Source: an uncultured bacterium (GTDB lineage Bacteria; Omnitrophota; Omnitrophia; Omnitrophales; Aquincolibacteriaceae). Taken from it: a stretch of DNA of 64,000 nucleotides. Every line of letters begins with the position of its first letter. Positions within the stretch are counted from its first letter, which is position 1. The translations under genes were made by a program, and so were the position numbers. The stretch is taken from positions 9,680 through 73,679 of the forward strand of contig CAYSSX010000002.1 in NCBI GenBank assembly GCA_964434115.1, read 5' to 3'. This document shows, one piece after another, positions 3,711-57,780 of the stretch. The notes under the pieces are model-generated. The model did not search any database, was not told the origin of the DNA, and worked only from the letters and a program-made list of their open reading frames with translations.

Positions 3711-4163
3711 GTGAAAGCCGATGCCGAAGTCTTAAAGATTCTCGCGGAGGTTACCGAGGCCAGCCTTGGAACCGTTGAGGCGGATGGCCGCCCGTATGTT
3801 TCCTCGGTAGGTGTCCTTTATGAGCCCGCCCAGAATTCATTAGAAGAAACAGGACAAATCTTTCTTTTTCTCAGCGCTTTGGCCCGGCATACCCGGAACC
3901 TTGCTCAGAACCCCTCCATCAGCCTTTTGTTTTCAGCGCGGGAAGAAAAAACTCCGGTTCACGAAACCGCCCGGCTGACCGTTCAGGGGGAGGCCGCTCT
4001 TGTTGCAAATCCGGTTTGGGAACAGAAACTGCGAACAGGTTACCTTCAGCGTTTTCCGCGCTCCGAAATCTTTCTGAGCTTGCCGGATTTCCGGTTCTAC
4101 GAAGTGAGGGTCCGGGAAATTCACTGGATAGGCGGGTTTGGCAAGGCAAAAACCCTCCGTTAA
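3711..4163 (+). CDS. Pyridoxamine-5-phosphate-oxidase-like FMN-binding split-barrel protein (HugZ/PNPOx-like)
   Basis: ORF frame continues from 3609 but overlaps DUF420. In-frame GTG at 3711 lies right after the DUF420 stop. Sequence resembles the PNPOx-like family. Confidence 0.45.
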   Translation: MKADAEVLKILAEVTEASLGTVEADGRPYVSSVGVLYEPAQNSLEETGQIFLFLSALARHTRNLAQNPSISLLFSAREEKTPVHETARLTVQGEAALVANPVWEQKLRTGYLQRFPRSEIFLSLPDFRFYEVRVREIHWIGGFGKAKTLR

Positions 4164-4201
4164 AGCCTTGTTTTCAGGGCCTTTTCCGAAGGGCCGAAGC
4201 G

Positions 4202-4230
4202 TTGACACTCCCAGGCTTTGTGTGTATATT
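4202..4230 (+). promoter_or_regulatory. Sigma-70-type promoter TTGACA-17 nt-TATATT upstream of cysC
   Basis: TTGACA at 4202-4207, exact 17-nt spacer, TATATT at 4225-4230, about 80 nt upstream of the cysC start. Confidence 0.45.
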
Positions 4231-4308
4231 GACCCGTTGCCCCCTCAAGCGATTTCCAGTTTTTCCGCACGAAAAACCGAGAAAAAGCCTCTAAAGGAGC
4301 CAAAAAGA

Positions 4309-4878
4309 TTGGGCCGTTCTGTCTTCGATTGCACAGAAGTAATTGTCAATAAAGGAGTTACCCTCTGGTTTACGGGGCTTCCAAGCTCCGGAAAATCCAC
4401 GCTGGCCAGGCTCTTGGAGCGCCAGCTTAAGAAGTGGGGGCTCAAGACAGAGCTTTTGGATGGGGATGTGGTCCGTACCCATTTGAGCAAAGGGCTGGGC
4501 TTTTCCAAGGAAGACCGCGAAACAAACATTAAACGTATCGGGTTTGTTTGTCATCTTTTGACGCGGAATGGGATCGTGGCGATCGCCTCGGCGGTGTCGC
4601 CTTACCGGGAAACGCGTGATTATAACCGGCGTATGATTGGCAGTTTTGTTGAGATTTACGTCAAGACCTCCGTTGAAGAGTGCGAAAAGCGCGACGTAAA
4701 AGGCCTTTATAAAAAAGCCCGCGCCGGAGAGATCAAAGGGTTCACCGGAATTGATGACCCTTACGAAGAACCCTTGAGACCTGAGATTGTCTGTGAGACT
4801 GCAGGCGAAACCCCCGAACAGTCTGCGGAAAAAATTCTGAAACGTTTGGAAGAACTCGGCTACCTCAAGTTCGCCTGA
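4309..4878 (+). CDS. cysC: Adenylylsulfate (APS) kinase
   Basis: P-loop WFTGLPSSGKST and APS-kinase-like downstream motifs. TTG start 9 nt after an AAAGGAG RBS. The upstream part of ORF 4138.. is non-homologous and precedes the promoter. Confidence 0.75.
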   Translation: MGRSVFDCTEVIVNKGVTLWFTGLPSSGKSTLARLLERQLKKWGLKTELLDGDVVRTHLSKGLGFSKEDRETNIKRIGFVCHLLTRNGIVAIASAVSPYRETRDYNRRMIGSFVEIYVKTSVEECEKRDVKGLYKKARAGEIKGFTGIDDPYEEPLRPEIVCETAGETPEQSAEKILKRLEELGYLKFA

Positions 4879-4914
4879 GTTTTTCCGCTTGCCGGAGAAA
4901 ACGGGGAGCTTGCC

Positions 4915-5679
4915 GTGGCCGTTAAACTTGAAAATTTAGATCAGCTGAACCGGGAGTTTGAAACCAAGACGCCTTTTGAAATCGTCAGCTGGGCGATTCA
5001 GGCGTTTGCCCCGAAGATTTCAATGACATCTTCGTTTGGTCCGGAAAGCGGCGTTCTCTTGCACCTGGTCAGCCGCGTGGATCCCTCGACTCCTGTTCTG
5101 TTTCTTGAAACCGGCTACCACTTTCCGGAAACCTTGGCGTATCGCGATCAATTGGTCAGCCTGTTCGGACTCAAGAATGTCCGCGATCTTCGTGCGGATC
5201 CCGAAAAAAAAGCCAAGGTTGTGGCTGAATACGGCGGCGTGCCGTACGAAAAAAACCCGGACCTTTGCTGCCATATCAATAAAGTGGAACCGCTGCAAGA
5301 TGTGATTAAAGAATACGACGCCTGGATGAGCGGCATCCGGCGGCATCAAACAGATTTTCGCAAGTCGATTCAAATGATTGAAGAGTATGAGGGCGGCCGG
5401 TACAAGATCAGCCCTCTCGCGAATATGACCTCGCGGGATGCCTGGTGGTATATGAAGGAACACAAGATACCCCAGCACACGCTTCAGGATAAGGGCTATT
5501 TCAGCATTGGGTGCTGGCCCTGCACAAAGCCTGTTCAGTCAGGCGACGATGAACGCTCCGGCCGATGGGCAGGAAAAAGTAAAAAAGAATGCGGCATTCA
5601 CACCTTTTTGAAAGAAGTGAAACCAAAAGCCGCGGAAGAAAAAGAAAGCCCGTCACAAGATCTGGGAGCGGGACTCTAA
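4915..5679 (+). CDS. cysH: Phosphoadenosine phosphosulfate/APS reductase (thioredoxin-dependent, Fe-S type)
   Basis: PAPS reductase fold motifs (SSFGPESGVLLHL). CC..C and SIGCWPCT cysteine motifs typical of Fe-S APS reductases. GTG start. Confidence 0.8.
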   Translation: MAVKLENLDQLNREFETKTPFEIVSWAIQAFAPKISMTSSFGPESGVLLHLVSRVDPSTPVLFLETGYHFPETLAYRDQLVSLFGLKNVRDLRADPEKKAKVVAEYGGVPYEKNPDLCCHINKVEPLQDVIKEYDAWMSGIRRHQTDFRKSIQMIEEYEGGRYKISPLANMTSRDAWWYMKEHKIPQHTLQDKGYFSIGCWPCTKPVQSGDDERSGRWAGKSKKECGIHTFLKEVKPKAAEEKESPSQDLGAGL

Positions 5680-5715
5680 GCCTCGCTTTTAACCTGAGTA
5701 AATGAGGAGGAAGTC

Positions 5716-6669
5716 ATGACCCTGACCGCGAAATCAAGAACCAAGCCGCTTGTTGCCAATAACATTCTTGATCTGATCTGCAACACCCCCCTTGTGAAAC
5801 TCAACAAAGTGGTTTCCCCGGGCATGGCCAATGTCTACGGCAAGCTGGAAGGTTTTACGCCCGGCGGCAGCGTGAAGGACCGCATCGCGCTCAGCATGAT
5901 CCGGGACGGAGAAGAAAAGGGGCTTGTTAAAAAAGATACGGTGATTGTTGAGCCGACGTCCGGAAACACAGGGATTGGCCTCGCGCTTGTGTGCGCGGTA
6001 AAAGGGTACCGCTTAATCCTGACTATGCCGGAAACCATGAGCGTTGAACGCCGCCAGCTTCTGAAACGTTACGGCGCGGAACTTGTTCTTACGCCTGGCG
6101 ACCAAGGCATGAAAGGCGCGATTGCCAAGGCGAATGAACTTCTGAAAGAAAATCCGAATAGCTTTATGCCGCAGCAGTTTGCCAACCCGGCGAATCCCAA
6201 GATTCACCGTGAGACAACGGCTGAGGAAATCTGGGAAGCCCTTGACGGCAAAATTGATGCTTTTGTCGCGGGTGTCGGCACGGGCGGAACCGTGACAGGC
6301 TGCGGAGAAGTTTTCAAAAAACGGAATCCCAAAATAAAAATCGTGGCCGTTGAGCCCACGGCATCTCCCGTCATTTCAGGCGGCCAGCCCGGCAAGCACC
6401 GCATTCAGGGCATTGGCGCCGGTTTTGTGCCGGAAGTTCTGAACCGTGACGTCCTTGATGAAGTGATTAAGATTGAGGACATGGAAGCCTGGAGCATGCT
6501 CATGGCGCTTGCGGAAAAAGAAGGGATTCTGAGCGGAATTTCCACGGGTGCGAATGTAACGGCCGCGCTGAAAGTGGCCAAAGAACTCGGCGCCGGAAAA
6601 AATGTTGTGACCATCATCTGCGATACGGGCGACCGCTACCTCAGCATGGATGACCGCTTTAAGGCTTAA
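5716..6669 (+). CDS. cysK: Cysteine synthase (O-acetylserine sulfhydrylase, PLP)
   Basis: PLP-lysine motif GGSVKDR, glycine loop [10 protein letters not shown], strong GGAGGA RBS. Confidence 0.85.
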
Positions 6670-6690
6670 ATTCGAGAAGGAGTTTTGAAG

Positions 6691-7965
6691 ATGTCTTTTC
6701 TTAAAGGTTTGCGCTGCCGCGAATGCGGACGCGATTATCCGAAAGAAGCGCTTTATGTCTGTGAATACTGCTTCGGTTCTCTTGAGGCCGCGTATGACTA
6801 TGACGCGATCAAGGCCGTCTTAACCCGCGATAAAATTCTTAAAGGCCCCCAGAGCCTTTGGCGCTACCGGGAATTGCTGCCGATTGACGGGGAGCCCAAG
6901 GCTGGTTTTTACTCCGGTTTTACGCCCCTTGTAAAAGCCGAGATTCTGGGAAAAGAACTCGGCGTGAAGAACCTTTATATTAAGGATGATTCGGTTTGTC
7001 ATCCGACCTGCTCCTTTAAAGACCGCGTTGTGGCCGTGGCGCTTTCCCGCGCGAAAGAACTTGGCTTTGATACCGTGGCCTGCGCTTCGACGGGAAACCT
7101 TGCCAACTCGGTAGCCGCGAACGGCGCTTGGGCCGGCTTCAACCGGTACATTTTTATTCCCGCAAATCTGGAGCAGGCCAAGATTATTGGAACCCTGGTG
7201 TATTCACCAAATCTGGTAGCGGTGAATGGGAATTATGATGATGTGAACCGTCTCTGCTCAGAAATCGCTTCCAAATACCGCTGGGGTTTTGTGAATATCA
7301 ACCTGCGCGCGTATTACGCCGAAGGCTCCAAGACCGTAGGGTTTGAAATCGCAGAGCAGCTTGGCTGGCGCGCCCCGGACCACATCGTTGCGCCCGCGGC
7401 CAGCGGTTCCTTGATCACCAAAATCTGGAAAGCCTTAAAGGAATTCGACAAGCTGGGACTTCTTGAGAAGCCCATGAAGACAAAAATATACTGCGCTCAG
7501 GCAGAGGGCTGCTCTCCTATCTCTACGGCCATTTTGAACAAATGGGAAGTGATCAAACCCGTAAAACCCGCCACGATTGCTAAATCGCTGGCCATCGGAA
7601 ATCCTGCTGACGGTTACTACGCCAAAGATGTGATTGAACAGTCAGGGGGAGCGGCCGCGTCTGTGACCGATGATGAAATCCGGGAAGGTATTAAACTCTT
7701 GGCCCGCACCGAAGGTATTTTTACTGAAACCGCCGGCGGCGTCACGGTTGCCTCCGCAAAAAAGTTGATTGAGCAGGGGATTATTCCGAAAAATGAAACC
7801 GTAGTTTTGACCATTACGGGAAATGGTTTGAAGACCCAGGAAGCTATTCAGGATGCGGTGGGCAAGCCGGCATTGATCGAACCGAACCTTGCTTCATTTG
7901 AAGAGCGCGTGATGTCAGGCCGCAGGGAAACCAAGCCCGCACCCGCGCCAAGCACGATCGTTTAA
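6691..7965 (+). CDS. Threonine-synthase-family PLP enzyme with N-terminal Cys4 zinc ribbon
   Basis: CRECG..(12 aa)..CEYCFG zinc ribbon. PLP-Lys motif SFKDR and ThrC-like fold motifs. ATG 6691 after a GAAGGAG RBS. Confidence 0.7.
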   Translation: MSFLKGLRCRECGRDYPKEALYVCEYCFGSLEAAYDYDAIKAVLTRDKILKGPQSLWRYRELLPIDGEPKAGFYSGFTPLVKAEILGKELGVKNLYIKDDSVCHPTCSFKDRVVAVALSRAKELGFDTVACASTGNLANSVAANGAWAGFNRYIFIPANLEQAKIIGTLVYSPNLVAVNGNYDDVNRLCSEIASKYRWGFVNINLRAYYAEGSKTVGFEIAEQLGWRAPDHIVAPAASGSLITKIWKALKEFDKLGLLEKPMKTKIYCAQAEGCSPISTAILNKWEVIKPVKPATIAKSLAIGNPADGYYAKDVIEQSGGAAASVTDDEIREGIKLLARTEGIFTETAGGVTVASAKKLIEQGIIPKNETVVLTITGNGLKTQEAIQDAVGKPALIEPNLASFEERVMSGRRETKPAPAPSTIV

Positions 7966-7983
7966 TTTCCGGAGGAGAAACGC

Positions 7984-8262
7984 ATGGCCGTTAAAGTAAG
8001 AATTCCGACGCCGTTACAAAAACTCACCAACCAGAATGCCCTTGTTGAAATTCAGGCAAAGACGGTCCGTGAACTCATGGATGTTTTGGAAAAGAATTAT
8101 CCGGGAATCAAGGAACGGCTTTGTGAACCCACGGGAAAAATCCGCCGCTTTGTGAATGTTTATTTAAATGAGGAAGATATCCGTTTCCTCGGACAGGAAG
8201 AAACGGCCATCAAAGACGGTGATGAGATTTCAATTGTTCCCGCGATCGCCGGAGGGTGCTGA
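7984..8262 (+). CDS. MoaD/ThiS-family sulfur-carrier-like protein ending ..AIAGGC
   Basis: 92 aa beta-grasp-like sequence ending Gly-Gly followed by one extra Cys. GGAGGAG RBS. Confidence 0.6.
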   Translation: MAVKVRIPTPLQKLTNQNALVEIQAKTVRELMDVLEKNYPGIKERLCEPTGKIRRFVNVYLNEEDIRFLGQEETAIKDGDEISIVPAIAGGC

Positions 8263-8263
8263 T

Positions 8264-8506
8264 ATGGCAAAGAAAGCCTACCATCTTTTTTTTGAGCAGA
8301 AGATGATCAAGGAGCCGATTATGTTTCTCGTGGCCCGCGATCATAACCTTCTTTTGAATATCCGCCGCGCAAAGATTACGGCAGAGACCGGGGAAGCGAC
8401 CGTGGAGCTTGAAGGCGATGAAAAACAGATCTTGAAAGCCGAGCAGGCCTTTCGCGCCAAAGGCGTGAAGGTTGAATCCGTGTTAGGGGATATCCTGGAA
8501 GGTTAA
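8264..8506 (+). CDS. Small NIL/ACT-like domain protein (80 aa)
   Basis: Short ferredoxin-like pattern with an LLLNIRRAKI segment reminiscent of the NIL domain of methionine-transporter C-termini. Translationally coupled (TGAtATG). Weak call. Confidence 0.3.
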   Translation: MAKKAYHLFFEQKMIKEPIMFLVARDHNLLLNIRRAKITAETGEATVELEGDEKQILKAEQAFRAKGVKVESVLGDILEG

Positions 8507-9567
8507 TGATGAGTTCCGAAACAGGAGAACAAAAACAGATGATGAATTTTATAGAAGAGCTCAAGCTCCGTGTTCTTGGCGGAGGGGAAGTTACTTTGGA
8601 GGAAGCGCTTCGTCTGGTCGAAATTGAAAACGGCTCCGAAGACTTTAAACACCTTTTGGAAGCGGCCCGCGAAATCACGTTCAACTTCAATTCCGATGAA
8701 CCCGGGCTTTGTTCTCTGATTAACGCGAAAAGTTATTTGTGCGCGGAGGATTGCGGGTTTTGTTCCCAATCGGTTCGTTTTGACACCCGGGTGAACCGTT
8801 ATAAGCTCATGGGCATTGAAGAAGTGGTGGATGCGGCCAAGGCCTTTGAAAAAAAGGGGACGCAGAATTTTTGTATTGTGACGAGCGGCGGGGAACTCGA
8901 TGACGCAGAGTTTGAACAAATCCTTGAAATGTACCGCCGCCTGCAGGCCGAGACCCAGCTGAAGCTCGACGGGTCGCTTGGATTTTTGTCGCCTGACCGC
9001 GTGAAGCGTTTGAAAGAAGCGGGCGTGCGCCGCTTTAATAACAACCTTCAAAGCTCCCGGGAATTTTATCCGAACATAGTCTCAACCCATACCTATGACA
9101 AGCGTATCGAAACCCTGAAGATGCTTCAGGACGGAAACATGGAAATTTGTTCCGGCGGAATTCTCGGCATGGGGGAAACCCGTGAAGATCGTATCAAGCT
9201 TGCCTTTGAGCTTAAGCCCTACGCCCCGCATTGCCTGCCGATGAACATCTTGAATCCGAGACCCGGCACGCCCCTTGAAAATCAGCCTCAGCCCGAACCG
9301 CTTGAAATGGTGAAGACGATTGCGGTTTACAGGTTCATTCATCCCAAAGCCAATATCAAACTGGCGGGCGGGCGTGAAATTAACCTGGGAGACACGTACC
9401 AGGAAATGTCGCTTCTCGGCGGAGCCAACGGTTTGATCCTCGGCGGGTATTTAACGACGGATGGAAATCCGATCAAGGCTGACCTGGATATGCTTGAACG
9501 CACGGGTTTTCAATTGCCAAAAGCCAAGGACAGCGGCGCCCAACAAAAACAGCCGGCCGTATCCTGA
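8506..9567 (+). CDS. bioB: Biotin synthase (radical SAM)
   Basis: CAEDCGFCSQ CxxxCxxC motif and BioB-like downstream cysteines/YNHNL-like region. Confidence 0.85.
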   Translation: MMSSETGEQKQMMNFIEELKLRVLGGGEVTLEEALRLVEIENGSEDFKHLLEAAREITFNFNSDEPGLCSLINAKSYLCAEDCGFCSQSVRFDTRVNRYKLMGIEEVVDAAKAFEKKGTQNFCIVTSGGELDDAEFEQILEMYRRLQAETQLKLDGSLGFLSPDRVKRLKEAGVRRFNNNLQSSREFYPNIVSTHTYDKRIETLKMLQDGNMEICSGGILGMGETREDRIKLAFELKPYAPHCLPMNILNPRPGTPLENQPQPEPLEMVKTIAVYRFIHPKANIKLAGGREINLGDTYQEMSLLGGANGLILGGYLTTDGNPIKADLDMLERTGFQLPKAKDSGAQQKQPAVS

Positions 9568-9634
9568 AAAAGGCCGTGTCTTATTTCCCGCGGTGTTCCC
9601 TCTCGGGGAGCCGGCCGCAAGACCGGATCATCGC

Positions 9635-10369
9635 ATGACCTCAAACCTCTCCGGAAAAACCCTTCTGATTACGGGCGGCACAGGCCGCCTTGGAGAATCC
9701 CTGGTACAGCAAGCGCTTGCCGCGGGCGGGCGTGTTTTTTTTACCTGGACACAGGCTCATGAGAAAGCACGCGCCTTGGAATCTCAAGGCGCCAAAGGGT
9801 TTCAGCTCAACCTCGCGGACATGCGGAAGATCGAAGAGTTTGCCGATCTTTTGAGGACTGCTGCTCCGCGTCTCGATATTCTGGTTCACAATGCGGCCGC
9901 GGTGCGCGACAAACTTCTCCGCGATATGGAAGAAGAGGACTGGGATGAAGTCCTGAAGGTGGATTTGAAAGCCCCTTTTTTTTTGACACAGAAACTTTTA
10001 CCCGTACTTCGCACCGCGAAACCCGCGAAAGTTTTTATGCTGATCAGCCGGGCCGCGGCCCTGGGCGCTTACGGGGCATCCAATTATGCGGCGGCCAAAG
10101 CAGGACTTGTCGGGCTTGTGAAATCGCTGGCTCAGGAGTGGGGGAATGAAGGGATTCTTGTGAATGCCATCAACCCCGGATTCATGCTTTCACGGATGAC
10201 AGAAAACCTAGCCGAGGAATACCTTGAAAGAAACCGTCGTGCCAGTCCGCTGTCCCAATATTCCAACCCTGAAGAAGTGGCGCGCTTTATTCTTTATCTT
10301 TCCTCAGAGGCCATGACACAGGCAACCGGACAGGTGTTTCATTTCGAATCCCGGAGGATACCCTTTTGA
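9635..10369 (+). CDS. Short-chain dehydrogenase/reductase, FabG-like 3-oxoacyl-ACP reductase
   Basis: TGGTGRLG Rossmann motif, YGASNYAAAK catalytic Tyr/Lys motif. In-frame ATG 9635 after the bioB stop. Confidence 0.75.
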   Translation: MTSNLSGKTLLITGGTGRLGESLVQQALAAGGRVFFTWTQAHEKARALESQGAKGFQLNLADMRKIEEFADLLRTAAPRLDILVHNAAAVRDKLLRDMEEEDWDEVLKVDLKAPFFLTQKLLPVLRTAKPAKVFMLISRAAALGAYGASNYAAAKAGLVGLVKSLAQEWGNEGILVNAINPGFMLSRMTENLAEEYLERNRRASPLSQYSNPEEVARFILYLSSEAMTQATGQVFHFESRRIPF

Positions 10370-11586
10370 TGCACGGGCGCGCAGTGGTGATTACAGGGCT
10401 TGGCGTGGTTTCCCCGATCGGAGTGGGAATTCCGGCGTTTCTTGAAAGTCTGAAAGCTGCCCGCTCGGGAGAGGGGCCGATTACATCCTTTTCAGCAGAC
10501 TCTTTTCCATTCAAACGGGCTTTTGAGGTGAAGGGTTTTGACCCGCATCATCACGGACTCCAGGCTGTAGACCCCTTTATTCAGTATGCCGTAGCTTCCG
10601 CGGATGAAGCGATTCGCGATGCGGGTTTTGATTCGGGTTCCGTGGATCCCTACTCCATCGGAATCTCGGTGAGTTCCAGCAAGGGAGGGGTTCACACGAT
10701 TGACCGTTTCAAGGAACGCCTGATGAGAAATCCGAGCGCCATTTTGGGCGCGCGTGTTTACTCAAGTGCGGTTCCCAATTTTGGAGCGCAGTGGATCGCG
10801 AGACGCTGGAAAGTGCAAGGCCCGGCCAAGTGTTATGTCGCGGCCTGCGCGACAGGAACCGTTGCTGTGATTGAAGGCATGCGGATGGTTGCGGAAGGTG
10901 TTGTCGATTACTGCATCGCGGGGGCGAGCGACGCCTCAATTGTGCCTCTGATGCTTGCCGGGTACCGGAACATGAAGGCTCTTTCGAATGATGAAATGCG
11001 GCCTTTTGATAAACGGCGTAACGGCTTTCTGGTGGGGGAAGGCGCGGGAATTGTTTTCCTTGAGACCCGCGAAAGCGCAGAGCGGCGCGGGGCAGCCATC
11101 TACGGAGAGATTCTGGGGTTTGGCTATGGGAGTGATACGAGCGACATGCTTCGCTTTGATGAAAAAGAGCACGCTCTTTCCCGCACAGGCGCGGCGGCAT
11201 TGAAACGCGGCGGCCTTTCGCCCGGAGAAATTGATTACGTGAACCTTCACGGAACCGCGACGCCTACGGGAGATATTTATGAGACCCGTGAGATGAAACA
11301 GCTGTTCGGAGAAAATGCTAAAAAAATCCCCATGAGTTCAACGAAATCAATGACAGGCCACATGCTCGGAGCTTCCGGTGCGGTGGAAGTCATCGCCTGC
11401 CTTCTTGCCATGAAGCATGGTTTTGTCCCGCCCACGATCGGGCTTCATGAAAAAGATCCGGACTGCGATCTTGATTATGTGCCCAACACGGCCCGGGCAG
11501 AAAAAATTCAGAACGCCCTTTCGGTTTCTATGGGTTTTGGCGGGCATGTCGCAGCTCTTCTTCTGGGCCAAGGCCGGGGGCGTTGA
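10366..11586 (+). CDS. Beta-ketoacyl-ACP synthase I/II-like (FabF-like)
   Basis: Active-site AACATG Cys, HGTATPTGD and GHMLGASG His motifs. Start overlaps the SDR stop (ATGA). Confidence 0.85.
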   Translation: MMHGRAVVITGLGVVSPIGVGIPAFLESLKAARSGEGPITSFSADSFPFKRAFEVKGFDPHHHGLQAVDPFIQYAVASADEAIRDAGFDSGSVDPYSIGISVSSSKGGVHTIDRFKERLMRNPSAILGARVYSSAVPNFGAQWIARRWKVQGPAKCYVAACATGTVAVIEGMRMVAEGVVDYCIAGASDASIVPLMLAGYRNMKALSNDEMRPFDKRRNGFLVGEGAGIVFLETRESAERRGAAIYGEILGFGYGSDTSDMLRFDEKEHALSRTGAAALKRGGLSPGEIDYVNLHGTATPTGDIYETREMKQLFGENAKKIPMSSTKSMTGHMLGASGAVEVIACLLAMKHGFVPPTIGLHEKDPDCDLDYVPNTARAEKIQNALSVSMGFGGHVAALLLGQGRGR

Positions 11587-11587
11587 G

Positions 11588-12784
11588 ATGGCGGATTCTC
11601 CAAAAACGGAATTTCTTTTTGAACAGCATTTGAAAGAAGCTCTGCACGAGCTTGAAGACCGCGGCATGCACCGGAAGCTTCGCACCCTGAAACTGACCGC
11701 CGCTCATCAAACGATGCTGGAAGGCCGCCCTGTAACCCTTTTTTGCAGTAATGACTATCTCGGACTTTCCCGTCATCCCCGTTTGATCAAAGCCTTTCAG
11801 GACGCAGCTGTTTACGGGACCGGATCAGGAGCCGCGCGTTTAATTTCGGGATCCACTGATTTTCATGACCGGCTTGAAAAAAAAATTGCTCAATTTAAAG
11901 GCTGTGAAAAAGCGCTTCTTTTTTCTACCGGGTACCTCGCAAACCTCGGTGTGCTGAGCGCTCTGGCGGGGGAAGGTGACCTGATTCTGATGGATAAGCT
12001 TTGCCACGCGTCACTTATTGACGGCGCCAGGCTTTCGGGGGCGGCCCTCAGGATTTTTCCGCACAAGCAGTATGGGAGATGCGAAGAAATTTTAAGCCAA
12101 TCCTCAGGGTTCAGACGCCGCCTATTGGTCACTGATTCTGTTTTTAGCATGGATGGTGACATTGCGGATCTAGGCGAACTGATACGTCTGAAAGAAACCT
12201 ACGATGCTGTTTTGGTGGTGGATGACGCCCATGGCACGGGGGTGACCGGTCCGAAGGGGCGCGGCTCGTGCGAGGACCCTCAAACCGGAAAAAGGCCTGA
12301 TGTGGTGGTGGGGACCCTCTCCAAGGCCCTGGGATGCCTCGGGGGTTTTGCTGCGGGATCCGAGGCGGTGATTGAAACCCTGGTCAACAGGGCAAGGTCC
12401 TTTATTTTTGCAACCTCTCTCCCTCCAGCGGTTTGCGCTGCGGCCTATGAGGCCTTTTGCGTGGTTGAGGAGGAGCCGTCCCTGAGGGAGAAGCTTCACG
12501 CCAACATAAAGATTCTGGAGGAGGGCTTGAAAAACTCGGGTTTTGATGCGATCCTTTCCGGAACGCCGATTTTCCCGGTTATTTTAGGAGAAGAGAGGGC
12601 CGCACTCGAGGGGTCCAAAGCCCTTTTGGAATCAGGCTTTTTGATCCCCGCGATACGCTACCCAACGGTGGCCAAAGGAAAAGCCCGCCTTCGGATTACG
12701 GTCAGCGCAATTCACAGCGAAAAGGAAATTCGGAATCTGATTGATAAAATCAGGCTTATAAAAAAGCAAACTCTTCCGATATAG
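11588..12784 (+). CDS. bioF: 8-amino-7-oxononanoate synthase
   Basis: AOS-family PLP enzyme motifs (DDAHGTG, TLSKALG). ATG overlaps the KAS stop (TGAgATG). Confidence 0.8.
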   Translation: MADSPKTEFLFEQHLKEALHELEDRGMHRKLRTLKLTAAHQTMLEGRPVTLFCSNDYLGLSRHPRLIKAFQDAAVYGTGSGAARLISGSTDFHDRLEKKIAQFKGCEKALLFSTGYLANLGVLSALAGEGDLILMDKLCHASLIDGARLSGAALRIFPHKQYGRCEEILSQSSGFRRRLLVTDSVFSMDGDIADLGELIRLKETYDAVLVVDDAHGTGVTGPKGRGSCEDPQTGKRPDVVVGTLSKALGCLGGFAAGSEAVIETLVNRARSFIFATSLPPAVCAAAYEAFCVVEEEPSLREKLHANIKILEEGLKNSGFDAILSGTPIFPVILGEERAALEGSKALLESGFLIPAIRYPTVAKGKARLRITVSAIHSEKEIRNLIDKIRLIKKQTLPI

Positions 12785-12790
12785 AAGATC

Positions 12791-13561
12791 ATGGCAGGAA
12801 CGAAACAACGGCTGTCTAAAATTCGTGAGGAAGCGGGAAAGCTTTTCTCGCTTGAGAGTACCCTCCAGAAAAGCGTTACCGCGCTTAACCTCGGCGCATT
12901 GTTTGGAGTTATTTATCTCACGCTTCCCTTATCTTCCAGGGGGAAGATGGATCCCCTTCAGACAGTGATTCTTGTCATCCTCGGACTCTTTCTGGCGGCC
13001 AATTATATTCAGCATGTGGTCATGATGCGCCTTCGTGCCAAATGGGCTGAAATCGAAGAGCAGTCTTCACACGATGGCCTGACAAAGGCGTTCAACCGCG
13101 AAGCTTTTGATGACATTCTCGAAGAAGAAATGAGCCGCGCGAAGCGTTACAAGTACCCGCTCAGCCTTTGCATCATCGACCTCGATAACTTTAAAACTTA
13201 CAATGACACTTACGGGCATCCCAAAGGCGACAGGCTTCTGATGGACTTCGCCGACCGTGTGCAAAAAGCGATTCGTACCGCCGACTGTTTGGCCCGTTAC
13301 GGCGGCGATGAGTTCTGTGTGCTGCTGCCGCACACTGACCTGGTCAGCGCTGAAAAATTTCTTTCCCGGATTCTCCCTGAGATCCAAGAGTGGCTGGACT
13401 TTACTTTTAGTGCCGGTGTCACAAGTTTCCGGCCAAATGACAACAGCTTGGAATTTGTCACGCGTGCTGATCTGGCGCTTTATCAGGCGAAACGTGAAGG
13501 CAGAAACCGGATCCGCTGTTTGATTGGTGAAGATGACAGCTCTGTGGTTGTGAAGTTTTAA
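12791..13561 (+). CDS. Membrane-anchored GGDEF diguanylate cyclase
   Basis: Two N-terminal TM helices followed by a GGDEF domain with an intact RYGGDEF active site. Confidence 0.8.
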   Translation: MAGTKQRLSKIREEAGKLFSLESTLQKSVTALNLGALFGVIYLTLPLSSRGKMDPLQTVILVILGLFLAANYIQHVVMMRLRAKWAEIEEQSSHDGLTKAFNREAFDDILEEEMSRAKRYKYPLSLCIIDLDNFKTYNDTYGHPKGDRLLMDFADRVQKAIRTADCLARYGGDEFCVLLPHTDLVSAEKFLSRILPEIQEWLDFTFSAGVTSFRPNDNSLEFVTRADLALYQAKREGRNRIRCLIGEDDSSVVVKF

Positions 13562-13610
13562 TTTTTTCTTCGAATGAGTTCCTCAGACGTACCCCTCAAA
13601 TCAGGATGCT

Positions 13611-15730
<2,120 letters not shown>

Positions 15731-15734
15731 TTCT

Positions 15735-16853
15735 ATGTTTATGGAAAAAAAGAAAGTCCTGGTGGCCATGAGCGGCGGTGTTGACAGCTCTGTGACGGCC
15801 GCGCTTCTTAAAGAGCAGGGTTATGATGTGGGCGGAGCTACGATCCGCACCTGGGCTTCCAATACCTGCGCGAGCGTAAACACCCGGGCCTGCTGCGGCC
15901 TGACGGGTGTTGAAGATGCCCGGTCCGTGTGCGACACGCTTGGAATTCCTTACTGGGTTTTCAACTTTGAGAAAGAATTCAAGACCCATGTGGTGGATTA
16001 CTTCGCCTCGGAGTACCTGAAGGCCCGCACCCCCAACCCATGCATTGCCTGCAACGAGCATATCAAGTTCCGCTTGTTTCTCCAGCGCGCGCGCCAGCTG
16101 GGTTACGACTTGATCGCGACGGGTCACTATGCCCAGCTTCACCACGACGCGGCCCATGACACCTTCTCTATCTCTGAAGGCGTGGATCATCATAAAGACC
16201 AGTCCTATGTTCTTTTTCCACTCGACCGGGAAGTTCTCAGCCATTTGCTGCTGCCAGTCGGAGGATTCACAAAGTCAGAAATCCGCGAGAAGGCCAAAGC
16301 CTATAACCTCTGCGTCATGAACAAGCCTGACTCTCAGGAAATCTGCTTTATCCCGAGCAATGATTACGGCGCTTTCTTGGAAAAAGAATTTGTCCGCGAG
16401 GACACCCGAGTGCCCTTGCCCGAAAGTCTTTCCGGGGAAAAGAAAACAGGCGTGATTCGAACGAAGGACGGAGAAGTCCTCGGCCAGCATGAAGGCTATT
16501 TTCACTATACGATCGGCCAGCGCCGCGGGCTCGGCGTCGCGGCCGGCAACCGTCTTTATGTGGTCGACATTCTTCCTTCGACCAATGAGGTGGTGGTGGG
16601 AAGCAAGGAAGATATTCTGCGCCAGCATTTTGTGGCGGCCCGCATCAACTGGTTTACAAAACCAGAAGCCGAGACTTTTCAGGCACACGTCAAAATCAGG
16701 TCTCAGCACAAGAAGTCTCCCGCCACGGTTACGGTGCTTGAAGATGGCCGTGTGGAAGGTGTTTTCCATGAACCTCAGGAAGCTATCACGCCCGGTCAGG
16801 CTGCGGTTTTCTACGATGGACCCCGCGTGATCGGCGGCGGCTGGATCGATTAA
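15735..16853 (+). CDS. mnmA: tRNA-specific 2-thiouridylase
   Basis: PP-loop SGGVDSS plus conserved MnmA cysteines. Starts 5 nt after the bioD stop. Confidence 0.85.
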   Translation: MFMEKKKVLVAMSGGVDSSVTAALLKEQGYDVGGATIRTWASNTCASVNTRACCGLTGVEDARSVCDTLGIPYWVFNFEKEFKTHVVDYFASEYLKARTPNPCIACNEHIKFRLFLQRARQLGYDLIATGHYAQLHHDAAHDTFSISEGVDHHKDQSYVLFPLDREVLSHLLLPVGGFTKSEIREKAKAYNLCVMNKPDSQEICFIPSNDYGAFLEKEFVREDTRVPLPESLSGEKKTGVIRTKDGEVLGQHEGYFHYTIGQRRGLGVAAGNRLYVVDILPSTNEVVVGSKEDILRQHFVAARINWFTKPEAETFQAHVKIRSQHKKSPATVTVLEDGRVEGVFHEPQEAITPGQAAVFYDGPRVIGGGWID

Positions 16854-16873: not shown

Positions 16874-18250
16874 ATGCGAGGCATCACCCTCGAAGGTAAA
16901 AAAGAATCCACCCTTATCACCTGGACGCTGAAGCGTCTGCGCAACCCTGTTCGTGTCCGCATTTCTCTCAAGCAAGGCCCGCTGGATAAAACCACGGCTT
17001 GCGTTCGTCACGATGATTTGGTCAAAGCCGGCCAGAAAATCGCGGAACCCGCCGACTCTTTTTCCGTTCCCCTGCACGCCAGTGTTTCCGGACGCGTGAT
17101 TACCGTAGGCTCATTCCCGCATCCGACCCTCGATTCCTGCGATGCTATTGAGATTGTGGGGGACGGCAAGCATGAAACCGTTCCGGGTGTGGGAACCGAA
17201 CGTCATGGGTGGGATTTGCTTTCGCCTGATTCACTGACCGCGCTGTTTCGTGAAATGGGGCTTGTGAGCCTGACGCCCGGTATGGTTCCTTTGCATGTTC
17301 TTATTGAAGATGCTCGGCAGCACAAAATCCACACGCTTGTCATCAATGCCTGCGAGCCCGAGCCGTATGTGACAAGCGATCACTCCCTGATGATGTCGCA
17401 TCCGCTTGAAATTCTGAAAGGGGCGGAACTTCTTCGCCACGCCTGCGGCGCTGAAAAAGTGATCATCGCCCTTCAGGAAGACAAGATGCAGGTGGCTGAA
17501 CTTTTCAAAAGCAAAATTTATTTTTTGAAATGGGAGAATATTGAAGTCCGGGTTCTTCCATCAAAGTTTCCGCAGGGACTTTCACTGCCGCTGCTTCACG
17601 CGCTTTTTGGTCTGAAAATAAATTTCCCCCGGGAAGCCCAGGCCGAGGAGCCGGAACAGGCCGTTGAGCTTGGCTTGGCGAAAGAGTTTCACCGTCAAGG
17701 ACTCGCGCTTCAGGCTGTTGCAACAGCCTATGCTGTCTATGAGGCCGTGGTTTTGCAAAAACCTCTTTATGAAAGACCGGTCACCGTGGCGGGGGAATGC
17801 GTGATGGAGCCGAAAAATCTTTGGCTTCCGATGGGACTCAGCCTTCAGGATTCTTTCAAATCCGCGCGGGGCTTAATGAGGGAACCCGGAAAGGTTGTGA
17901 TGGGCGGTCCCATGCTGGGTTGGGAGCAGGAAGCTCTGGAGGCTCCGATTCTTAAAGGTACGACCGCGCTTTTGGCTTTGCCGAAAGAAGTGACTTTTGT
18001 TCCTGAAGTGACTGCCTGTACTCATTGCGGACGATGCGTGGAGATTTGTCCTTCCGAGATTTCCCCTGTGATGATTACGCTTGCCGCGGAGCAGGGCCTT
18101 TATGAAGAATCTCAGGCCTGGGGTGCTCTTGACTGCATCCGCTGCGGCAACTGCACGTACATTTGTCCCGCAAAACGCCCCATGGCGGATCTCATCCGCG
18201 ACGCCCGGCAGAATCTTTTGCCGATCAAGCGCGAAAATCAAAAAGAATAA
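16874..18250 (+). CDS. RnfC-like protein with two C-terminal 4Fe-4S cluster motifs and a degenerate flavin/NADH site
   Basis: Aligns to RnfC (..LVINACEPEPYVTSDHSLM..). C-terminal CTHCGRCVEICP and CIRCGNCTYICP motifs. The canonical GGAGFP motif is replaced by SLTPGMVPL. Confidence 0.7.
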   Translation: MRGITLEGKKESTLITWTLKRLRNPVRVRISLKQGPLDKTTACVRHDDLVKAGQKIAEPADSFSVPLHASVSGRVITVGSFPHPTLDSCDAIEIVGDGKHETVPGVGTERHGWDLLSPDSLTALFREMGLVSLTPGMVPLHVLIEDARQHKIHTLVINACEPEPYVTSDHSLMMSHPLEILKGAELLRHACGAEKVIIALQEDKMQVAELFKSKIYFLKWENIEVRVLPSKFPQGLSLPLLHALFGLKINFPREAQAEEPEQAVELGLAKEFHRQGLALQAVATAYAVYEAVVLQKPLYERPVTVAGECVMEPKNLWLPMGLSLQDSFKSARGLMREPGKVVMGGPMLGWEQEALEAPILKGTTALLALPKEVTFVPEVTACTHCGRCVEICPSEISPVMITLAAEQGLYEESQAWGALDCIRCGNCTYICPAKRPMADLIRDARQNLLPIKRENQKE

Positions 18251-19590
18251 TTCATTTCCCCGATATAAAGATTTTCAGGCATGCCGTATTCTTCATGAGG
18301 GCCGCCGGCGTAAAGCTGGGCCGCCAGCGTCAGGAGCAAGTTGCTTCGGAGTTCATAGCGGAGTTCCGGGCGAAGGAAAAGGCTCGTGTCATCCATGTTT
18401 AAAATCAGCCGGTGCTCAAAGCGAAGCAGTGAGGTGATGTTGTAGCCCATCAAAAGGGCGCTGTAATTTTTCGCAAGCTGCTGGATGTCCCCGTCGATGA
18501 AGCGAGCGACTTCGTAATCGTCCGTATTTCTCCGTCCCTCACCATTAAAATGATATTCCAAAAGCCCATAGACGTTGTGCGGAAAGTTGTAGTCCGCGTT
18601 TAAAGTAAACTTGATAAAGTCCCGCCCCTGATCGACTTCCCGGTAGAGGAACTCCCCGCGGACCGCAGAACTTTTAACATTTCCCTGAAAGTCAAAGCCG
18701 AGCGCATGATCCCGCTGAATACGGCCTCCGAGAACACCCATTTCAAAACCATAAATATCCTTTGAGATGCGGCCCAAATAGCGCTGAGGGTGGAGATCGC
18801 GGCCGCGGGGTGTGTAAATAAACTGCCATTTCATGTCCGCGAAATTTTTCGCGATCATGTTGACGGCATCCACGCCATCCCGTTCTTCAAGTTCAATCTG
18901 GGTGGGGCTGAAGGGATTGAATAAGTCGGTGGGGGTGAAGAAGTGGCCGACCCCCCAGGGAATCTGCTGACGTCCGATTTCTACCGAGAAATCATTGTTT
19001 TCATAAACCACGCTGGCCCGGTACAGGCGGTGTTCATAAAGAGCGCCGTGTTCTTCGACAAGATCCTGGCTGAGATCCAGGAACTGGCGCTTTTCGCTCA
19101 GGTTGTGGGCCATCCTGAAATCCCCGGATCCGACAAAGCTCCCGAAGGACGCTCCGTGATCGTAATCCACCTTCACCGTGACCCTGTGATTTTCTTTGAC
19201 GTCCCAGGTGCTTTTGAGTTTGAGGCGGATTCTTTCCATGCTGGAGAAAAGGCTCTCTCTTTTTTCTCCTCCGGCCAAAGGATTGTCCGCAAGCTCTGGT
19301 GTGAGTCCCGTGGTTTTGGTGAAAAAGTTCAAGGTTTTGATATACCCCGAAAGGTGGGTGTCGAGGGGCGCCTCGCCGGCAAAAACCCAGGCCGGAACAA
19401 GGGCAGCAAGTGAAAGCGCCGCGGTTAACCAAAAACGAAGAGGCAGTCTTGCCGAGGGCTTTCTTTTGAGACTCCCGGAAAAATTGGAATCAAGAAGTTC
19501 GGGCACCGCGGCGGGAGAATTTTTGAGTTCAAGGGCATCGTGAAGAATCGAACCCCGTTTTAAATCTTCCCGGATTTTTCCAGGCATCAT
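18238..19590 (-). CDS. Outer-membrane beta-barrel protein (C-terminal aromatic residue), last gene of the minus-strand operon
   Basis: Signal-peptide-like segment LTAALSLAALVPAWVFA. Alternating amphipathic strands. Ends ..EMNYSF. True start uncertain (long N-terminal lead before the signal peptide). 4-nt overlap with the upstream ATPase. Confidence 0.5.
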   Translation of the reverse strand: MMPGKIREDLKRGSILHDALELKNSPAAVPELLDSNFSGSLKRKPSARLPLRFWLTAALSLAALVPAWVFAGEAPLDTHLSGYIKTLNFFTKTTGLTPELADNPLAGGEKRESLFSSMERIRLKLKSTWDVKENHRVTVKVDYDHGASFGSFVGSGDFRMAHNLSEKRQFLDLSQDLVEEHGALYEHRLYRASVVYENNDFSVEIGRQQIPWGVGHFFTPTDLFNPFSPTQIELEERDGVDAVNMIAKNFADMKWQFIYTPRGRDLHPQRYLGRISKDIYGFEMGVLGGRIQRDHALGFDFQGNVKSSAVRGEFLYREVDQGRDFIKFTLNADYNFPHNVYGLLEYHFNGEGRRNTDDYEVARFIDGDIQQLAKNYSALLMGYNITSLLRFEHRLILNMDDTSLFLRPELRYELRSNLLLTLAAQLYAGGPHEEYGMPENLYIGEMNYSF

Positions 19591-21490: not shown

Positions 21491-22425
21491 CAGGGGTATT
21501 TTTCAAGGTTTGACTTCGTGAAAAGGGAATCAGGGATTTCTTGATCAAAGGCGGCTTCCTGAATCGTGACGGTGGTGGAGCGGTCCTTATCCTTGTGATT
21601 GGACATCTTCCACACGGTCGGGATCTCATGAGTTCCGAAAGATTTGAAATCAGAATATTCCAAGGTCCGGATGTGAACGAGCTTTTCATTAAAAAAGTCC
21701 CAGCGTACAGGCGCGGAATCTTTTTGCCGGAGCCACACCACGAGCTTTCCGTAAGTGACAGGAGCATCGGGTTTGGGAATGAGTTCAAGGCGGTAGCAGT
21801 CAAACCCATCGATCTTTTCTTCCCCGGCAACGGAACCGTCATAATCGCGGGGCATATAGCTCAGCTTCACAAAATCATCATTGGAGAAGTCGCTGCCCAT
21901 AAAATCATCAAGCATGAGTGACGGGGGGATAAGGATGGTGCGCTCCGCAGACGGCAGGTATTGCCATAGCCGTGACTGAACTCTGAGAAAGCCCTGGCCT
22001 TCCGACTTGGAAGGGGAGAGAACGCGCGCAAATGTATAATCGATGCCCTTCATCCAGACCCGGATTTTGTAATCACGCTCCCAGCGCGAAGTCTTCACGT
22101 GAAGAACAACCGTCATGTCATGCGATTTTCCGCGGAGAACCTCGTCCATTTGAGCCAAAAGTATCTTTATGTCCGGCTGCGGCTCTGCGGCAGAGGCCGT
22201 GTCTTGGGTGCTCAAGACAGGCGCATTTGGGGTAACAAGGCTGCTTTCCAAAGCAACAGCCTTAGCCTCCGGCTCTGTTTGAACCGGAGCTTGAGATTGC
22301 GTTGGAGCTGGAGCCGCCGGTGTCGGCGGAACCGGAAGAGGCTGCTGTGGCGGACGACGGAAATAAAAAAAACAGGCCGCAGCAATAGCGGCTAAGACGG
22401 CTAGCAGTAACCAATTTTTTTTCAT
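21490..22425 (-). CDS. Periplasmic LolA-like (outer-membrane lipoprotein-sorting-like) protein with a Pro/Ala/Gln-rich linker
   Basis: Signal peptide, low-complexity PPQQPLPVPPTPAAPAPTQ linker, then a beta-rich domain resembling the LolA-like fold family. Overlaps neighbouring genes by 1-4 nt. Confidence 0.45.
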   Translation of the reverse strand: MKKNWLLLAVLAAIAAACFFYFRRPPQQPLPVPPTPAAPAPTQSQAPVQTEPEAKAVALESSLVTPNAPVLSTQDTASAAEPQPDIKILLAQMDEVLRGKSHDMTVVLHVKTSRWERDYKIRVWMKGIDYTFARVLSPSKSEGQGFLRVQSRLWQYLPSAERTILIPPSLMLDDFMGSDFSNDDFVKLSYMPRDYDGSVAGEEKIDGFDCYRLELIPKPDAPVTYGKLVVWLRQKDSAPVRWDFFNEKLVHIRTLEYSDFKSFGTHEIPTVWKMSNHKDKDRSTTVTIQEAAFDQEIPDSLFTKSNLEKYP

Positions 22426-23351
22426 AGGGCCGCCTCGACTTCCTTCTTAGTTTTTATAGAAGCCGCTTGAGAGACGGTTTTTTTTCGAGAGGGAAGGAAG
22501 AATTTTAGAACAATCCATTTTTTCAGGCGCATCAAGGGACTCCGCATACCCTGAGGGTAAGTTCTTATCACTGTTTTCTGGGTCATGAGGTCGGTTTGAT
22601 AAACCGTTGGAGCAAACGCTGTTTTTCTTTTGCCCGTCAGGTGTTTGACGGCTTCGGTTCCCGTAATAGCGCCGACCAGCATAAGCCCCGGCGAAACACT
22701 TGAGGCGCGCCGGCTTCCGAGCTCGGAAGCGCGCGAGTTCATATAAGACAGGCACAGAGGGGTTGGGGACAGGCCGAAGGCGAAAGCGAAATTTTTATCC
22801 TCTTCCGAAAGTCCGGGGCGAAAGTCAAAGTACTCTTCAAAGGTCATACCTTGCGGAGAAAAAACAAGGAGCGAAGCGCCGAACCCGAGCGGACAAGAGG
22901 TGATAACAGTAAGCCCCTTTTCGCGGCTCTTGCGAAACAGAAGAAGTTTGGCCTCGAGCGCGAAAAAGTCGATGCCATCAATAACGAGGTCGGAGCCGTC
23001 AAGAAAAGAGCTGATGTTTTTCTCGTGGACACCTTCCGGAAAAAGTTCGACGTCAGCTTCAGGGTTAATGGAGAGGACCATGTCCCGAAGAACCGCGACT
23101 TTGGATTTTCCCAAAGAATCATGCGTTGCGCCGATTTGGCGGTTCAGGTTGGTCAATTCGAAGACGTCAGGGTCCGCGAATTTAAAGCGTGTGATTCCGA
23201 GGCGGGCCAAGGCCTGGGCCTGAAAACCGCCCGCTCCACCAAGTCCCGCAATGGCCACCGTGGACTGCCTTAACTTGGCCTGTTCTTCGTTGGTCAGCCA
23301 GCCAAGATTACGGTCAAAGGCCTGATCATAATCAAAAACTCCGGCAGGCAC
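22422..23351 (-). CDS. ThiF/MoeB/MccB-type E1-like adenylyltransferase
   Basis: IAGLGGAGG nucleotide-binding loop, NLNRQ catalytic motif, DxD region (LVIDGIDFF). C-terminal about 130 aa of unknown function. No CxxC pairs. Confidence 0.75.
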   Translation of the reverse strand: MPAGVFDYDQAFDRNLGWLTNEEQAKLRQSTVAIAGLGGAGGFQAQALARLGITRFKFADPDVFELTNLNRQIGATHDSLGKSKVAVLRDMVLSINPEADVELFPEGVHEKNISSFLDGSDLVIDGIDFFALEAKLLLFRKSREKGLTVITSCPLGFGASLLVFSPQGMTFEEYFDFRPGLSEEDKNFAFAFGLSPTPLCLSYMNSRASELGSRRASSVSPGLMLVGAITGTEAVKHLTGKRKTAFAPTVYQTDLMTQKTVIRTYPQGMRSPLMRLKKWIVLKFFLPSRKKTVSQAASIKTKKEVEAAL

Positions 23352-23439
23352 TGTGGTCTCCTTTAAATTAGGTATCGCAAAACGAAGCTTTAAAAAACAA
23401 AAAAGGACATTTGATAGCTTAAGGCAAGAGCCTTAATTG

Positions 23440-25832: not shown

Positions 25833-26036
25833 GAAACCTCATTATCGGGTTCAGGGGGTTGAACGTCCCACAGGTCGCGGTTCACAAAGCGCTCAAAAGC
25901 TCCAAAACACACTTTTCTTGCTAAACTTAAGTCTACCCGCCCCTATTAGTTAATACAAGGAAGGGCCAAGGAAAAGACCTGGAGGTTGCATCTTGCATCC
26001 AGAATTGCTATTTTGAGCCATAAAAACCAGGAAATC

Positions 26037-57694: not shown

Positions 57695-57780
57695 AGCGTT
57701 TAGATTTTTCCTCAGAAATTCCTTCCCTTCGCCGATAATAAGAGCAAACGCATTGATCGCTGCTTTTTTAAGGAGCTCTT

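Follow-up and report, generated by a model that had tools for sequence, protein, structure and literature searches.

On the + strand of a 64-kb stretch of DNA from an uncultured member of the Omnitrophota (the window, in whose coordinates all positions are given), three genes at 6691-8506 follow directly on cysC, cysH and cysK: one encodes a pyridoxal-phosphate (PLP) enzyme of the threonine synthase (ThrC) family, one a small sulfur-carrier-like protein of the ThiS/MoaD type, and one a free-standing NIL-domain protein. An earlier note on this DNA had picked out the same three open reading frames (ORFs), which our analysis confirms at those positions, and had proposed for them a protein-thiocarboxylate route to cysteine or homocysteine. 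Searches with hidden Markov models (HMMs) bear out the three families it had named, PF02597 matching the 92-residue carrier (E=5e-18), TIGR00260 the enzyme (277 bits) and PF09383 the NIL protein (E=2e-10). Enzyme and carrier are referred to below as MetM-like and MetO-like, after the Streptomyces albulus pair with which we compare them.

4202-4230, + strand: promoter-like site (TTGACA-17-TATATT, 11/12), a consensus match only, ahead of cysC
4309-4878, + strand: cysC, adenylyl-sulfate kinase (PF01583, E=5e-63; PRK00889, 257 bits, cut-off 244)
4915-5679, + strand: cysH, (phospho)adenylyl-sulfate ((P)APS) reductase (PF01507, E=4e-43; PRK02090, 263 bits, cut-off 154)
5716-6669, + strand: cysK, classical O-acetylserine sulfhydrylase (TIGR01139, 454 bits, cut-off 351)
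6691-7965, + strand: MetM-like PLP enzyme, 424 amino acids (aa) (PF00291 PALP, E=2e-66; ATG 9 nt after AGGAG)
6715-6771, + strand: Cys4 (CxxC-x11-CxxC) zinc-ribbon-like motif of the MetM-like enzyme, residues 9, 12, 24 and 27
7984-8262, + strand: MetO-like carrier, 92 aa (PF02597 ThiS; TIGR01687, 52.7 bits, cut-off 49.5)
8264-8506, + strand: stand-alone NIL protein, 80 aa (PF09383, 40.7 bits, cut-off 24)
8506-9567, + strand: bioB, biotin synthase (TIGR00433, 364 bits, cut-off 225)

The genes from cysC to bioB are tightly packed, with spacers from cysK to bioB of 21, 18, 1 and -1 nt in order, the stop codon of the NIL gene overlapping the start of bioB by 1 nt; because the last three spacers are so short, the ThrC-like, carrier and NIL genes are translationally packed. 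The same gene order is found on related Omnitrophota contigs, and a chance pattern of ORFs can thus be dismissed. We took the start of cysC from 189-aa orthologs in L003 and L010 (L-numbers denote related loci compared with the window locus), the frame itself being open from 4138. The promoter-like site is a possible operon start on weak evidence; such sites are in total no more numerous in the region than in shuffled sequence. As the earlier note had it, a classical CysK stands alongside the module: its closest relative in the PDB is M. tuberculosis CysK1 (2q3b, E=1e-112), not CysM. The scanned ORFs in the rest of the window include no met, thr, sulfite-reductase, MoeB or rhodanese gene.

The MetM-like protein is a fold type II PLP enzyme of the ThrC family with its catalytic lysine in place (K110 in SFKDR, invariant in our alignment A1), and it falls outside the CysK/CysM family (cysKM model, 37.7 bits, cut-off 344) and far below the threshold for cysteate synthase (83 bits, cut-off 325). 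Its best model is NF006050 (PRK08197), which it matches at 293 bits over residues 1-391, Cys4 region included, against a cut-off of 303; its closest solved structures are true threonine synthases (6cgq, 2zsj and 1uim), with 35-37% identity and alignment only from residue ~55 onwards (193 bits for 6cgq). An exhaustive search of representative sequences recovered a broad family, ~400-430 aa in length, whose members can be aligned from residue 1 onwards and conserve the Cys4 motif; the close homologs of the window enzyme bear the names Candidatus Omnitrophica or Omnitrophota. The N-terminal Cys4 ribbon to which the earlier note drew attention is real and well kept: in alignment A1, C9 and C24 do not vary and C12 and C27 are conserved to at least 90%, and in 79 orthologs the four positions hold cysteine in 75, 75, 79 and 63 cases, the fourth being Asp in 13. 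It is not diagnostic, however: models of archaeal-type ThrC and of cysteate synthase align with this region as well, at their N-terminal ends, and on that ground we rejected the ribbon as a marker of carrier dependence.

A comparison of 79 members of the MetM-like family with five canonical ThrCs revealed 25 positions fixed differently in the two groups, and the window protein carries the MetM-group residue at 25/25. Several of these positions fall inside motifs conserved across the ThrC family, where canonical SFKDRGM, STGNTS, NPYRxEGQKT, PVGNAGN and GNPASW are exchanged for SFKDRVV, STGNLA, NLRxYYxEGSKT, PxAxGS and GNPADG; none of the canonical motifs (the first taken as KDRGM) survives in the window protein, and at least 90% of the 79 members have them replaced too. 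Canonical ThrC (6cgq, 2zsj, 1uim) shares the fold and the PLP lysine motif, but lacks the first ~55 residues with the Cys4 motif as well as an 8-residue insertion of the MetM-like group.

We scanned genomes, one per species, with a profile built from an 8-sequence alignment and obtained 80 loci whose enzyme is 55-78% identical to the window's ThrC-like protein. The loci span more than 10 phyla, among them Omnitrophota, Planctomycetota, Nitrospirota, Nitrospinota, Thermodesulfobacteriota/Deltaproteobacteria, Actinomycetota, Chloroflexota, Verrucomicrobiota, Cyanobacteria, Acidobacteriota, Elusimicrobia and others; ORFs were called in each, neighbours were identified by iterative HMM searches seeded with the window's own proteins, and 65 of the 80 loci were scanned for the S-adenosylmethionine (SAM) riboswitch (RF00162, gathering score 44.4). 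A MetO-like carrier gene adjoins the enzyme gene in 73/80 loci, as it does across 18 nt in the window, and this part of the synteny that the earlier note had suggested looking for in relatives is borne out. A SAM riboswitch (52-96 bits) immediately precedes the enzyme gene, in the same orientation, in 27/65 scanned loci, from Actinomycetota, Chloroflexota, Planctomycetota, Verrucomicrobiota, Kiritimatiellae, Deltaproteobacteria and Acidobacteriota, which ties the family independently to methionine supply. The order riboswitch, MetM, MetO is seen in actinomycete loci such as L047; in L069 the riboswitch-controlled unit carries a homoserine kinase gene, thrB (TIGR00191, 241 bits), after MetO, and in L082 an adenylating E1 enzyme and a class V aminotransferase of the cysteine-desulfurase type come after MetO.

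Because the carrier gene so regularly accompanies the enzyme gene, SAM riboswitches precede so many orthologs, the pair matches a published system and the neighbouring CysK is of the classical type, we consider that the three genes quite probably constitute a MetM/MetO-type homocysteine (methionine) module inside a sulfate-assimilation operon. Of cysteine and homocysteine, both suggested as products by the earlier note, homocysteine is thus the one favoured by carrier pairing, riboswitches and the MetM/MetO match, and cysteine is disfavoured. The core system, the MetM/MetO thiocarboxylate pathway, is already known, having been described in 2024; the element for which we found no description in the accessible literature is the NIL protein. 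GapMind 2026 takes the steps MetO, Mec, MoeZ and MetM from Hasebe et al. 2024 (Appl Environ Microbiol 90:e01247-24), and states that the Mec hydrolase is needed for MetO maturation and that MetM is often misannotated as threonine synthase. A study of Microcystis reports 51.6% identity between the 'ThrC' of that organism and S. albulus MetM, and 47% between the carrier next to it and MetO, and assigns a SAM riboswitch to S. albulus metM. With the window enzyme, the ortholog from Microcystis novacekii (L062) shares 61% identity and a Micromonosporaceae protein 51%. NF006050, an 'equivalog' model named threonine synthase, gives the riboswitch-controlled L047 and L020 proteins 316 and 315 bits (cut-off 303), hence the database name 'threonine synthase', and is a likely source of systematic misannotation.

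The carrier has the beta-grasp ThiS/MoaD fold by its family match and ends IVPAIAGGC, that is, in AIAGG followed by one residue (Gly-Gly at 8251-8256, Cys at 8257-8259). The earlier note had read this Gly-Gly-Cys (GG-Cys) end as one that requires a JAMM protease. Of the 120 MetO homologs nearest in sequence (71-100% identity, for the most part from Omnitrophota), 45 end in GG, 57 carry one extra residue and 18 have longer tails; the single extra residue is R in 12, I in 11, C in 10, K in 7, N in 5, V in 4, Q in 3 and another residue in the others. Ordered by identity of MetM to the window enzyme, relatives at 90% end in GG-R, one at 84% ends in GG and has no NIL gene, and one at 78% ends in GG-N. 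We therefore rejected 'GG-Cys' as a specific conserved signal, the extra residue being variable or absent in close relatives (GG, GG-R, GG-I, GG-K), and the terminal Cys is one of many disposable caps. In ThiS, MoaD and CysO chemistry, a cap after Gly-Gly must be removed before the E1 adenylates the glycine carboxylate; since any cap blocks adenylation, the argument for JAMM trimming stands whatever the residue. The earlier note had named two further genes of the window as partners of the carrier.

44125-44616, + strand: JAB/MPN (JAMM) metalloprotease (PF14464, E=1.5e-18)
22422-23351, - strand: ThiF-family protein (PF00899, E=3e-42; NF006077 (PRK08223), 333 bits, cut-off 266)

The JAB gene is real and its JAMM motif complete (E...HSHx7SxxD), making its product a candidate for trimming the residue after Gly-Gly. 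In the comparative set a JAB gene lies within 5 kb of the module in 13/80 loci, and 10/13 of these have tailed carriers. The second gene does encode a ThiF-family protein, but probably not the carrier's partner: it scores only 53-79 bits on MoeB/MoeZ models, against 300-510 bits on MoeB/MoeZ/UbaA models for module-linked E1s elsewhere, and we rejected it as the carrier's likely E1 because it belongs to a different E1 subfamily, of PRK08223 type, and to a separate gene module with nitroreductase-like and FeeM-like neighbours.

That module consists of three consecutive minus-strand genes (22422-25832), for the ThiF-like PRK08223 protein, a nitroreductase-like protein and a PilZ plus FeeM-like N-acyl amino acid synthase. 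The nitroreductase-like protein matches the C-terminal part of PRK14851/Rv1355c-family models, the PilZ plus FeeM-like protein matches the N-terminal part of PRK14852, and the trio have the look of large uncharacterised fusion proteins that are split into separate genes. They lie in a minus-strand block of ~7.6 kb, which also encodes a 450-aa protein, a MacB/FtsX-type ATP-binding cassette pair and a LolA-like protein, and which parts rnfC (16874-18250) from rnfD (25986-26978) in what looks like an insertion into an rnf operon.

Several observations weigh against a homocysteine module. The window contains no SAM riboswitch, an Rfam scan of its whole length having returned no match; the riboswitch belongs to the MetM-like family and not to this locus, for which riboswitch control was rejected. 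The JAB gene lies 36 kb from the operon between unrelated genes, and its product is only 23-32% identical to module-linked JABs of other species, and it has no genomic link to the operon. No MoeB/MoeZ-type E1 was found in the window, whose sole ThiF-family gene is the PRK08223-type one, and the real E1 of the carrier is presumably encoded outside it. The relative whose MetM is 84% identical keeps the operon otherwise and lacks NIL, which must therefore be a dispensable, accessory component. Orthology to the characterised S. albulus MetM is an indirect link that we infer by way of the Microcystis ortholog. Finally, the window enzyme passes the broad TIGR00260 thrC model comfortably (277 bits, cut-off 167), and for the Microcystis homolog both threonine synthase and threonine deaminase activities have been reported in vitro, with no rise of methionine in vivo.

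These last two points, together with the name 'threonine synthase' used by databases and the lack of a visible second thrC within the 64 kb, would fit a reading in which the ThrC-like gene is the organism's threonine synthase, possibly bifunctional, and the carrier and NIL protein serve, for example, molybdopterin synthesis or tRNA thiolation. We judge this improbable. The pairing with a carrier would be left unaccounted for, as would riboswitches that signify regulation by methionine and not threonine; the 25 signature positions are fixed unlike those of canonical ThrC; and neither MoaE nor thiamine genes stand beside the carrier. In three loci from Thermodesulfovibrio/Nitrospirota (L016-L018), moreover, a canonical thrC of ~365 aa, without the Cys4 region and scoring ~330 bits on TIGR00260, occurs in the same cluster just downstream of NIL (L016, 1974-3101; L017, 7856-8947; L018, 2168-3268), and the two ThrC-family paralogs are therefore not redundant.

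The position directly after cysC-cysH-cysK raises a different reading, in which O-phosphoserine and a carrier thiocarboxylate would be turned into cysteine by the module, after the manner of CysM/CysO/Mec, as an oxidation-resistant second route beside CysK. The logic of carrier, JAMM protease and E1 is that of the CysO pathway, and CysK/CysM-like genes do share a cluster with carrier, JAB and E1 in several related loci (L019-L024, L029-L031). The enzyme, however, is of the ThrC and not the CysK/CysM family, its orthologs lie under SAM riboswitches, one of them co-transcribed with homoserine kinase, the fold of NIL is linked to methionine, and the characterised relative uses O-phosphohomoserine; a cysteine-forming module is accordingly very improbable.

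In Nitrospira-type loci (L022, L023, L029, L030, L038 and L051, at about 4100-9200 in each), genes for a CysK/CysM-like protein, an E1, MetM-like, MetO and NIL proteins, a second E1 and a JAB protein form a complete set in a single cluster, with an E1 paralog on either side of the module. In several cyanobacterial loci the MetM-like gene is preceded, at 0.2-1 kb, by another small ThiS-like ORF, a more distant one whose product ends LIPPVSGG (L040, 1087-1353; L043, 4901-5155; L054, 287-559).

We turn to the third gene. An adjoining NIL gene accompanies the MetM/MetO pair in 30/80 species, in loci that include Omnitrophota, Nitrospirota, Chloroflexota (where NIL precedes MetO), Verrucomicrobiota, Planctomycetota, Elusimicrobia and Methylomirabilota, and a strong signature is common to the free NIL proteins of different phyla, …FP..LIKEPV……NIRRA.V….G…LEL.G…. 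In six species MetO and NIL are fused into a single polypeptide of 171-190 aa (for example in L020, 7275-7790) that keeps PAIAGG at the junction, with a short linker, and a JAB gene lies nearby in 5/5 fusion loci with enough contig to check. Two related architectures were seen: a MetO-E1 fusion with PAIAGG at its junction (L019, 7235-8302) and a 183-aa tandem NIL-NIL protein (L041, 10481-11032).

The window protein matches PF09383 and is predicted to adopt the ferredoxin-like fold of the MetN C2 domain. Its AlphaFold2 model (mean predicted local distance difference test score, 85.5) has the order beta-alpha-beta-beta-alpha-beta (E-H-E-E-H-E), and the top 11 PDB matches returned by Foldseek are MetN C2/NIL domains; against C2 of the E. 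coli methionine importer (3tui, 3tuz and 3dhx) the template-modelling score is 0.76-0.83 and the root-mean-square deviation 1.2-3.1 Å. These matches include a selenomethionine-soaked crystal form, and the ACT domains of SerA, SerB2 and PheA rank after them; a PDB search by sequence yielded insignificant matches only. The NIL domain of MetN has been described as a methionine-binding regulatory domain, and a similar role has been hypothesised for an archaeal homocysteine-forming enzyme. The predicted fold agrees with the earlier note's view that NIL points to methionine/homocysteine metabolism. The window NIL protein contains no cysteine, which argues against a role in persulfide relay.

Two associations bear on what NIL might do. 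Across the 65 scanned loci, NIL and the SAM riboswitch occur together in 6, NIL only in 24, the riboswitch only in 21 and neither in 14 (Fisher p=0.002), a suggestive negative association in which NIL is less frequent where a riboswitch is present. In a separate comparison, tails beyond GG are found in 21/29 loci with NIL versus 6/43 without (p=9e-7). Both tests ignore shared ancestry and are inflated by ~25 cyanobacterial loci that have neither NIL nor tail. The accessible literature holds no mention that we found of NIL together with sulfur carriers or homocysteine synthesis, and Iyer et al. 2006, on prokaryotic ubiquitin-like systems, mentions no ThrC or methionine contexts. NIL is a recurrent third component, and with moderate-to-low confidence we take it as a small ACT-like sensor of a ligand (methionine or some closely related metabolite) or as an adaptor that works at the step of the carrier. 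A more specific model, that NIL is an unrecognised third subunit of MetM/MetO, a methionine-sensing ACT-like cap whose binding of methionine gates maturation or activation of the carrier and so substitutes for the SAM riboswitch, is conceivable and rather doubtful. If it were true, feedback control would operate through the regulated processing of a ubiquitin-like protein, with JAMM cleavage having to release the fused NIL, and the Omnitrophota variant would consist of a separate NIL gene beside a carrier with a short removable tail.

On the preferred reading of a MetM/MetO-type module, the operon might work as follows. Sulfate would be activated and reduced by way of CysC and CysH, with the remaining reduction steps encoded elsewhere, and CysK would make cysteine from free sulfide by the ordinary route. 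MetO would be made with one extra residue, Cys, after Gly-Gly, to be trimmed by a JAMM protease for which the JAB protein at 44125 is a candidate; a MoeB/MoeZ-type E1 encoded outside the window would then adenylate the exposed Gly-Gly carboxylate, and adenylated MetO would be converted to the thiocarboxylate with sulfur originating from the cysC/cysH branch. The MetM-like enzyme would activate O-phosphohomoserine, and the MetO thiocarboxylate would attack the gamma carbon in place of the addition of water that takes place in threonine synthase, giving homocysteine either directly or through a MetO-homocysteine adduct released by the JAMM protease as in the CysO/CysM/Mec pathway. In the least secure step, NIL would tune the pathway to methionine status, a feedback at the protein level where the SAM riboswitch is absent.

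The window pair resembles S. albulus MetM/MetO in placing the gene of a ThrC-homologous PLP enzyme beside that of a ThiS/MoaD-type carrier with a Gly-Gly end, and actinomycete and other orthologs share the SAM riboswitch reported for S. albulus. It differs in having no riboswitch, in lying inside a cysC-cysH-cysK...bioB operon, in its third gene, NIL, and in the lack of a Mec/MoeZ-type gene nearby. The CysM/CysO/Mec+/MoeZR pathway of M. tuberculosis follows the same logic: an E1 with a sulfurtransferase makes the carrier thiocarboxylate, this thiocarboxylate is coupled by a PLP enzyme to a hydroxy-amino acid in phosphorylated form, and the resulting adduct is hydrolysed by a JAMM protease; the GG-Cys end of the window carrier has the same chemical form as the CysO-cysteine adduct cut by Mec+. 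There, however, the PLP enzyme belongs to the CysK/CysM family and uses O-phosphoserine, whereas the window enzyme belongs to the ThrC family and its neighbouring CysK is classical. In the HcyS/HcyD/HcyF/MetY pathway of Wolinella succinogenes, said to have been worked out by Krishnamoorthy and Begley in 2011, a JAMM protease reportedly removes an extra C-terminal residue and the thiocarboxylate gives rise to homocysteine, the sulfhydrylase reportedly being MetY, an O-acetylhomoserine sulfhydrylase of PLP fold type I; the window enzyme is instead a fold type II ThrC homolog, presumably acting on O-phosphohomoserine. The NIL protein shares PF09383 and its predicted fold with MetN C2 and with the NIL-ferredoxin subunit of archaeal L-aspartate-semialdehyde sulfurtransferase, whose contexts both concern methionine or homocysteine, but is here a free-standing protein of 80 aa, or elsewhere a C-terminal extension of the carrier, with no ATPase or ferredoxin partner domain.

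Downstream of the module, the stretch 8506-16853 encodes, after bioB, a short-chain dehydrogenase/reductase and a ketoacyl synthase (fabG/fabF-like, possibly for pimelate synthesis), a bioF-like protein, a GGDEF protein, bioA-like and bioD-like proteins and mnmA, a string of sulfur-using functions with a diguanylate cyclase inside, and the order from bioB to mnmA is kept in related Omnitrophota contigs.

In this lineage the NIL gene leads straight into bioB and, further on, mnmA, with stop and start codons that overlap, which suggests one more reading. The carrier would here feed sulfur to another product (biotin through BioB, 2-thiouridine (s2U) through MnmA) or to some unknown thio-amino acid, with a non-proteinogenic compound as the product of the ThrC-like enzyme; that new sulfur chemistry can evolve within the ThrC family is evident from cysteate synthase. 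Linkage to bioB, however, was seen in the Omnitrophota loci alone (L001-L012), while the MetM-MetO pair recurs whatever its neighbours; the cysteate synthase model falls far short of its cut-off, as given above, and no tool result points to another product. Of the alternatives considered, we rank this as the least probable, by a narrow step below the cysteine route.

Read as a MetM/MetO-type homocysteine module, the window locus would be a riboswitch-less variant of the published system set in a sulfate-assimilation/biotin operon. In almost all annotations the MetM/MetO pair still goes by the names 'threonine synthase' and 'MoaD/ThiS family protein'. Besides Omnitrophota, the family is present in at least seven phyla in which SAM riboswitches accompany it, and the metabolism reconstructed for many uncultured bacteria, like the auxotrophies predicted for them, should therefore be revised. 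The recurrence of NIL, its fusion behind a cleavable Gly-Gly and its negative association with the riboswitch together amount to a testable hypothesis of regulation at the protein level in a sulfur-carrier pathway.

Elsewhere in the window, ORFs of 556, 450, 272 and 225 aa (42407-44077; 18238-19590, - strand; 56876-58458) have no Pfam match at E<=1e-3 to 1e-5, and the 556-aa ORF has no NCBIfam match either. This 556-aa ORF follows an Omp85-family gene and is itself followed directly by the JAB gene. The GC content of ~0.51-0.55 falls to ~0.46-0.50 in the last third of the window (~42000-64000).

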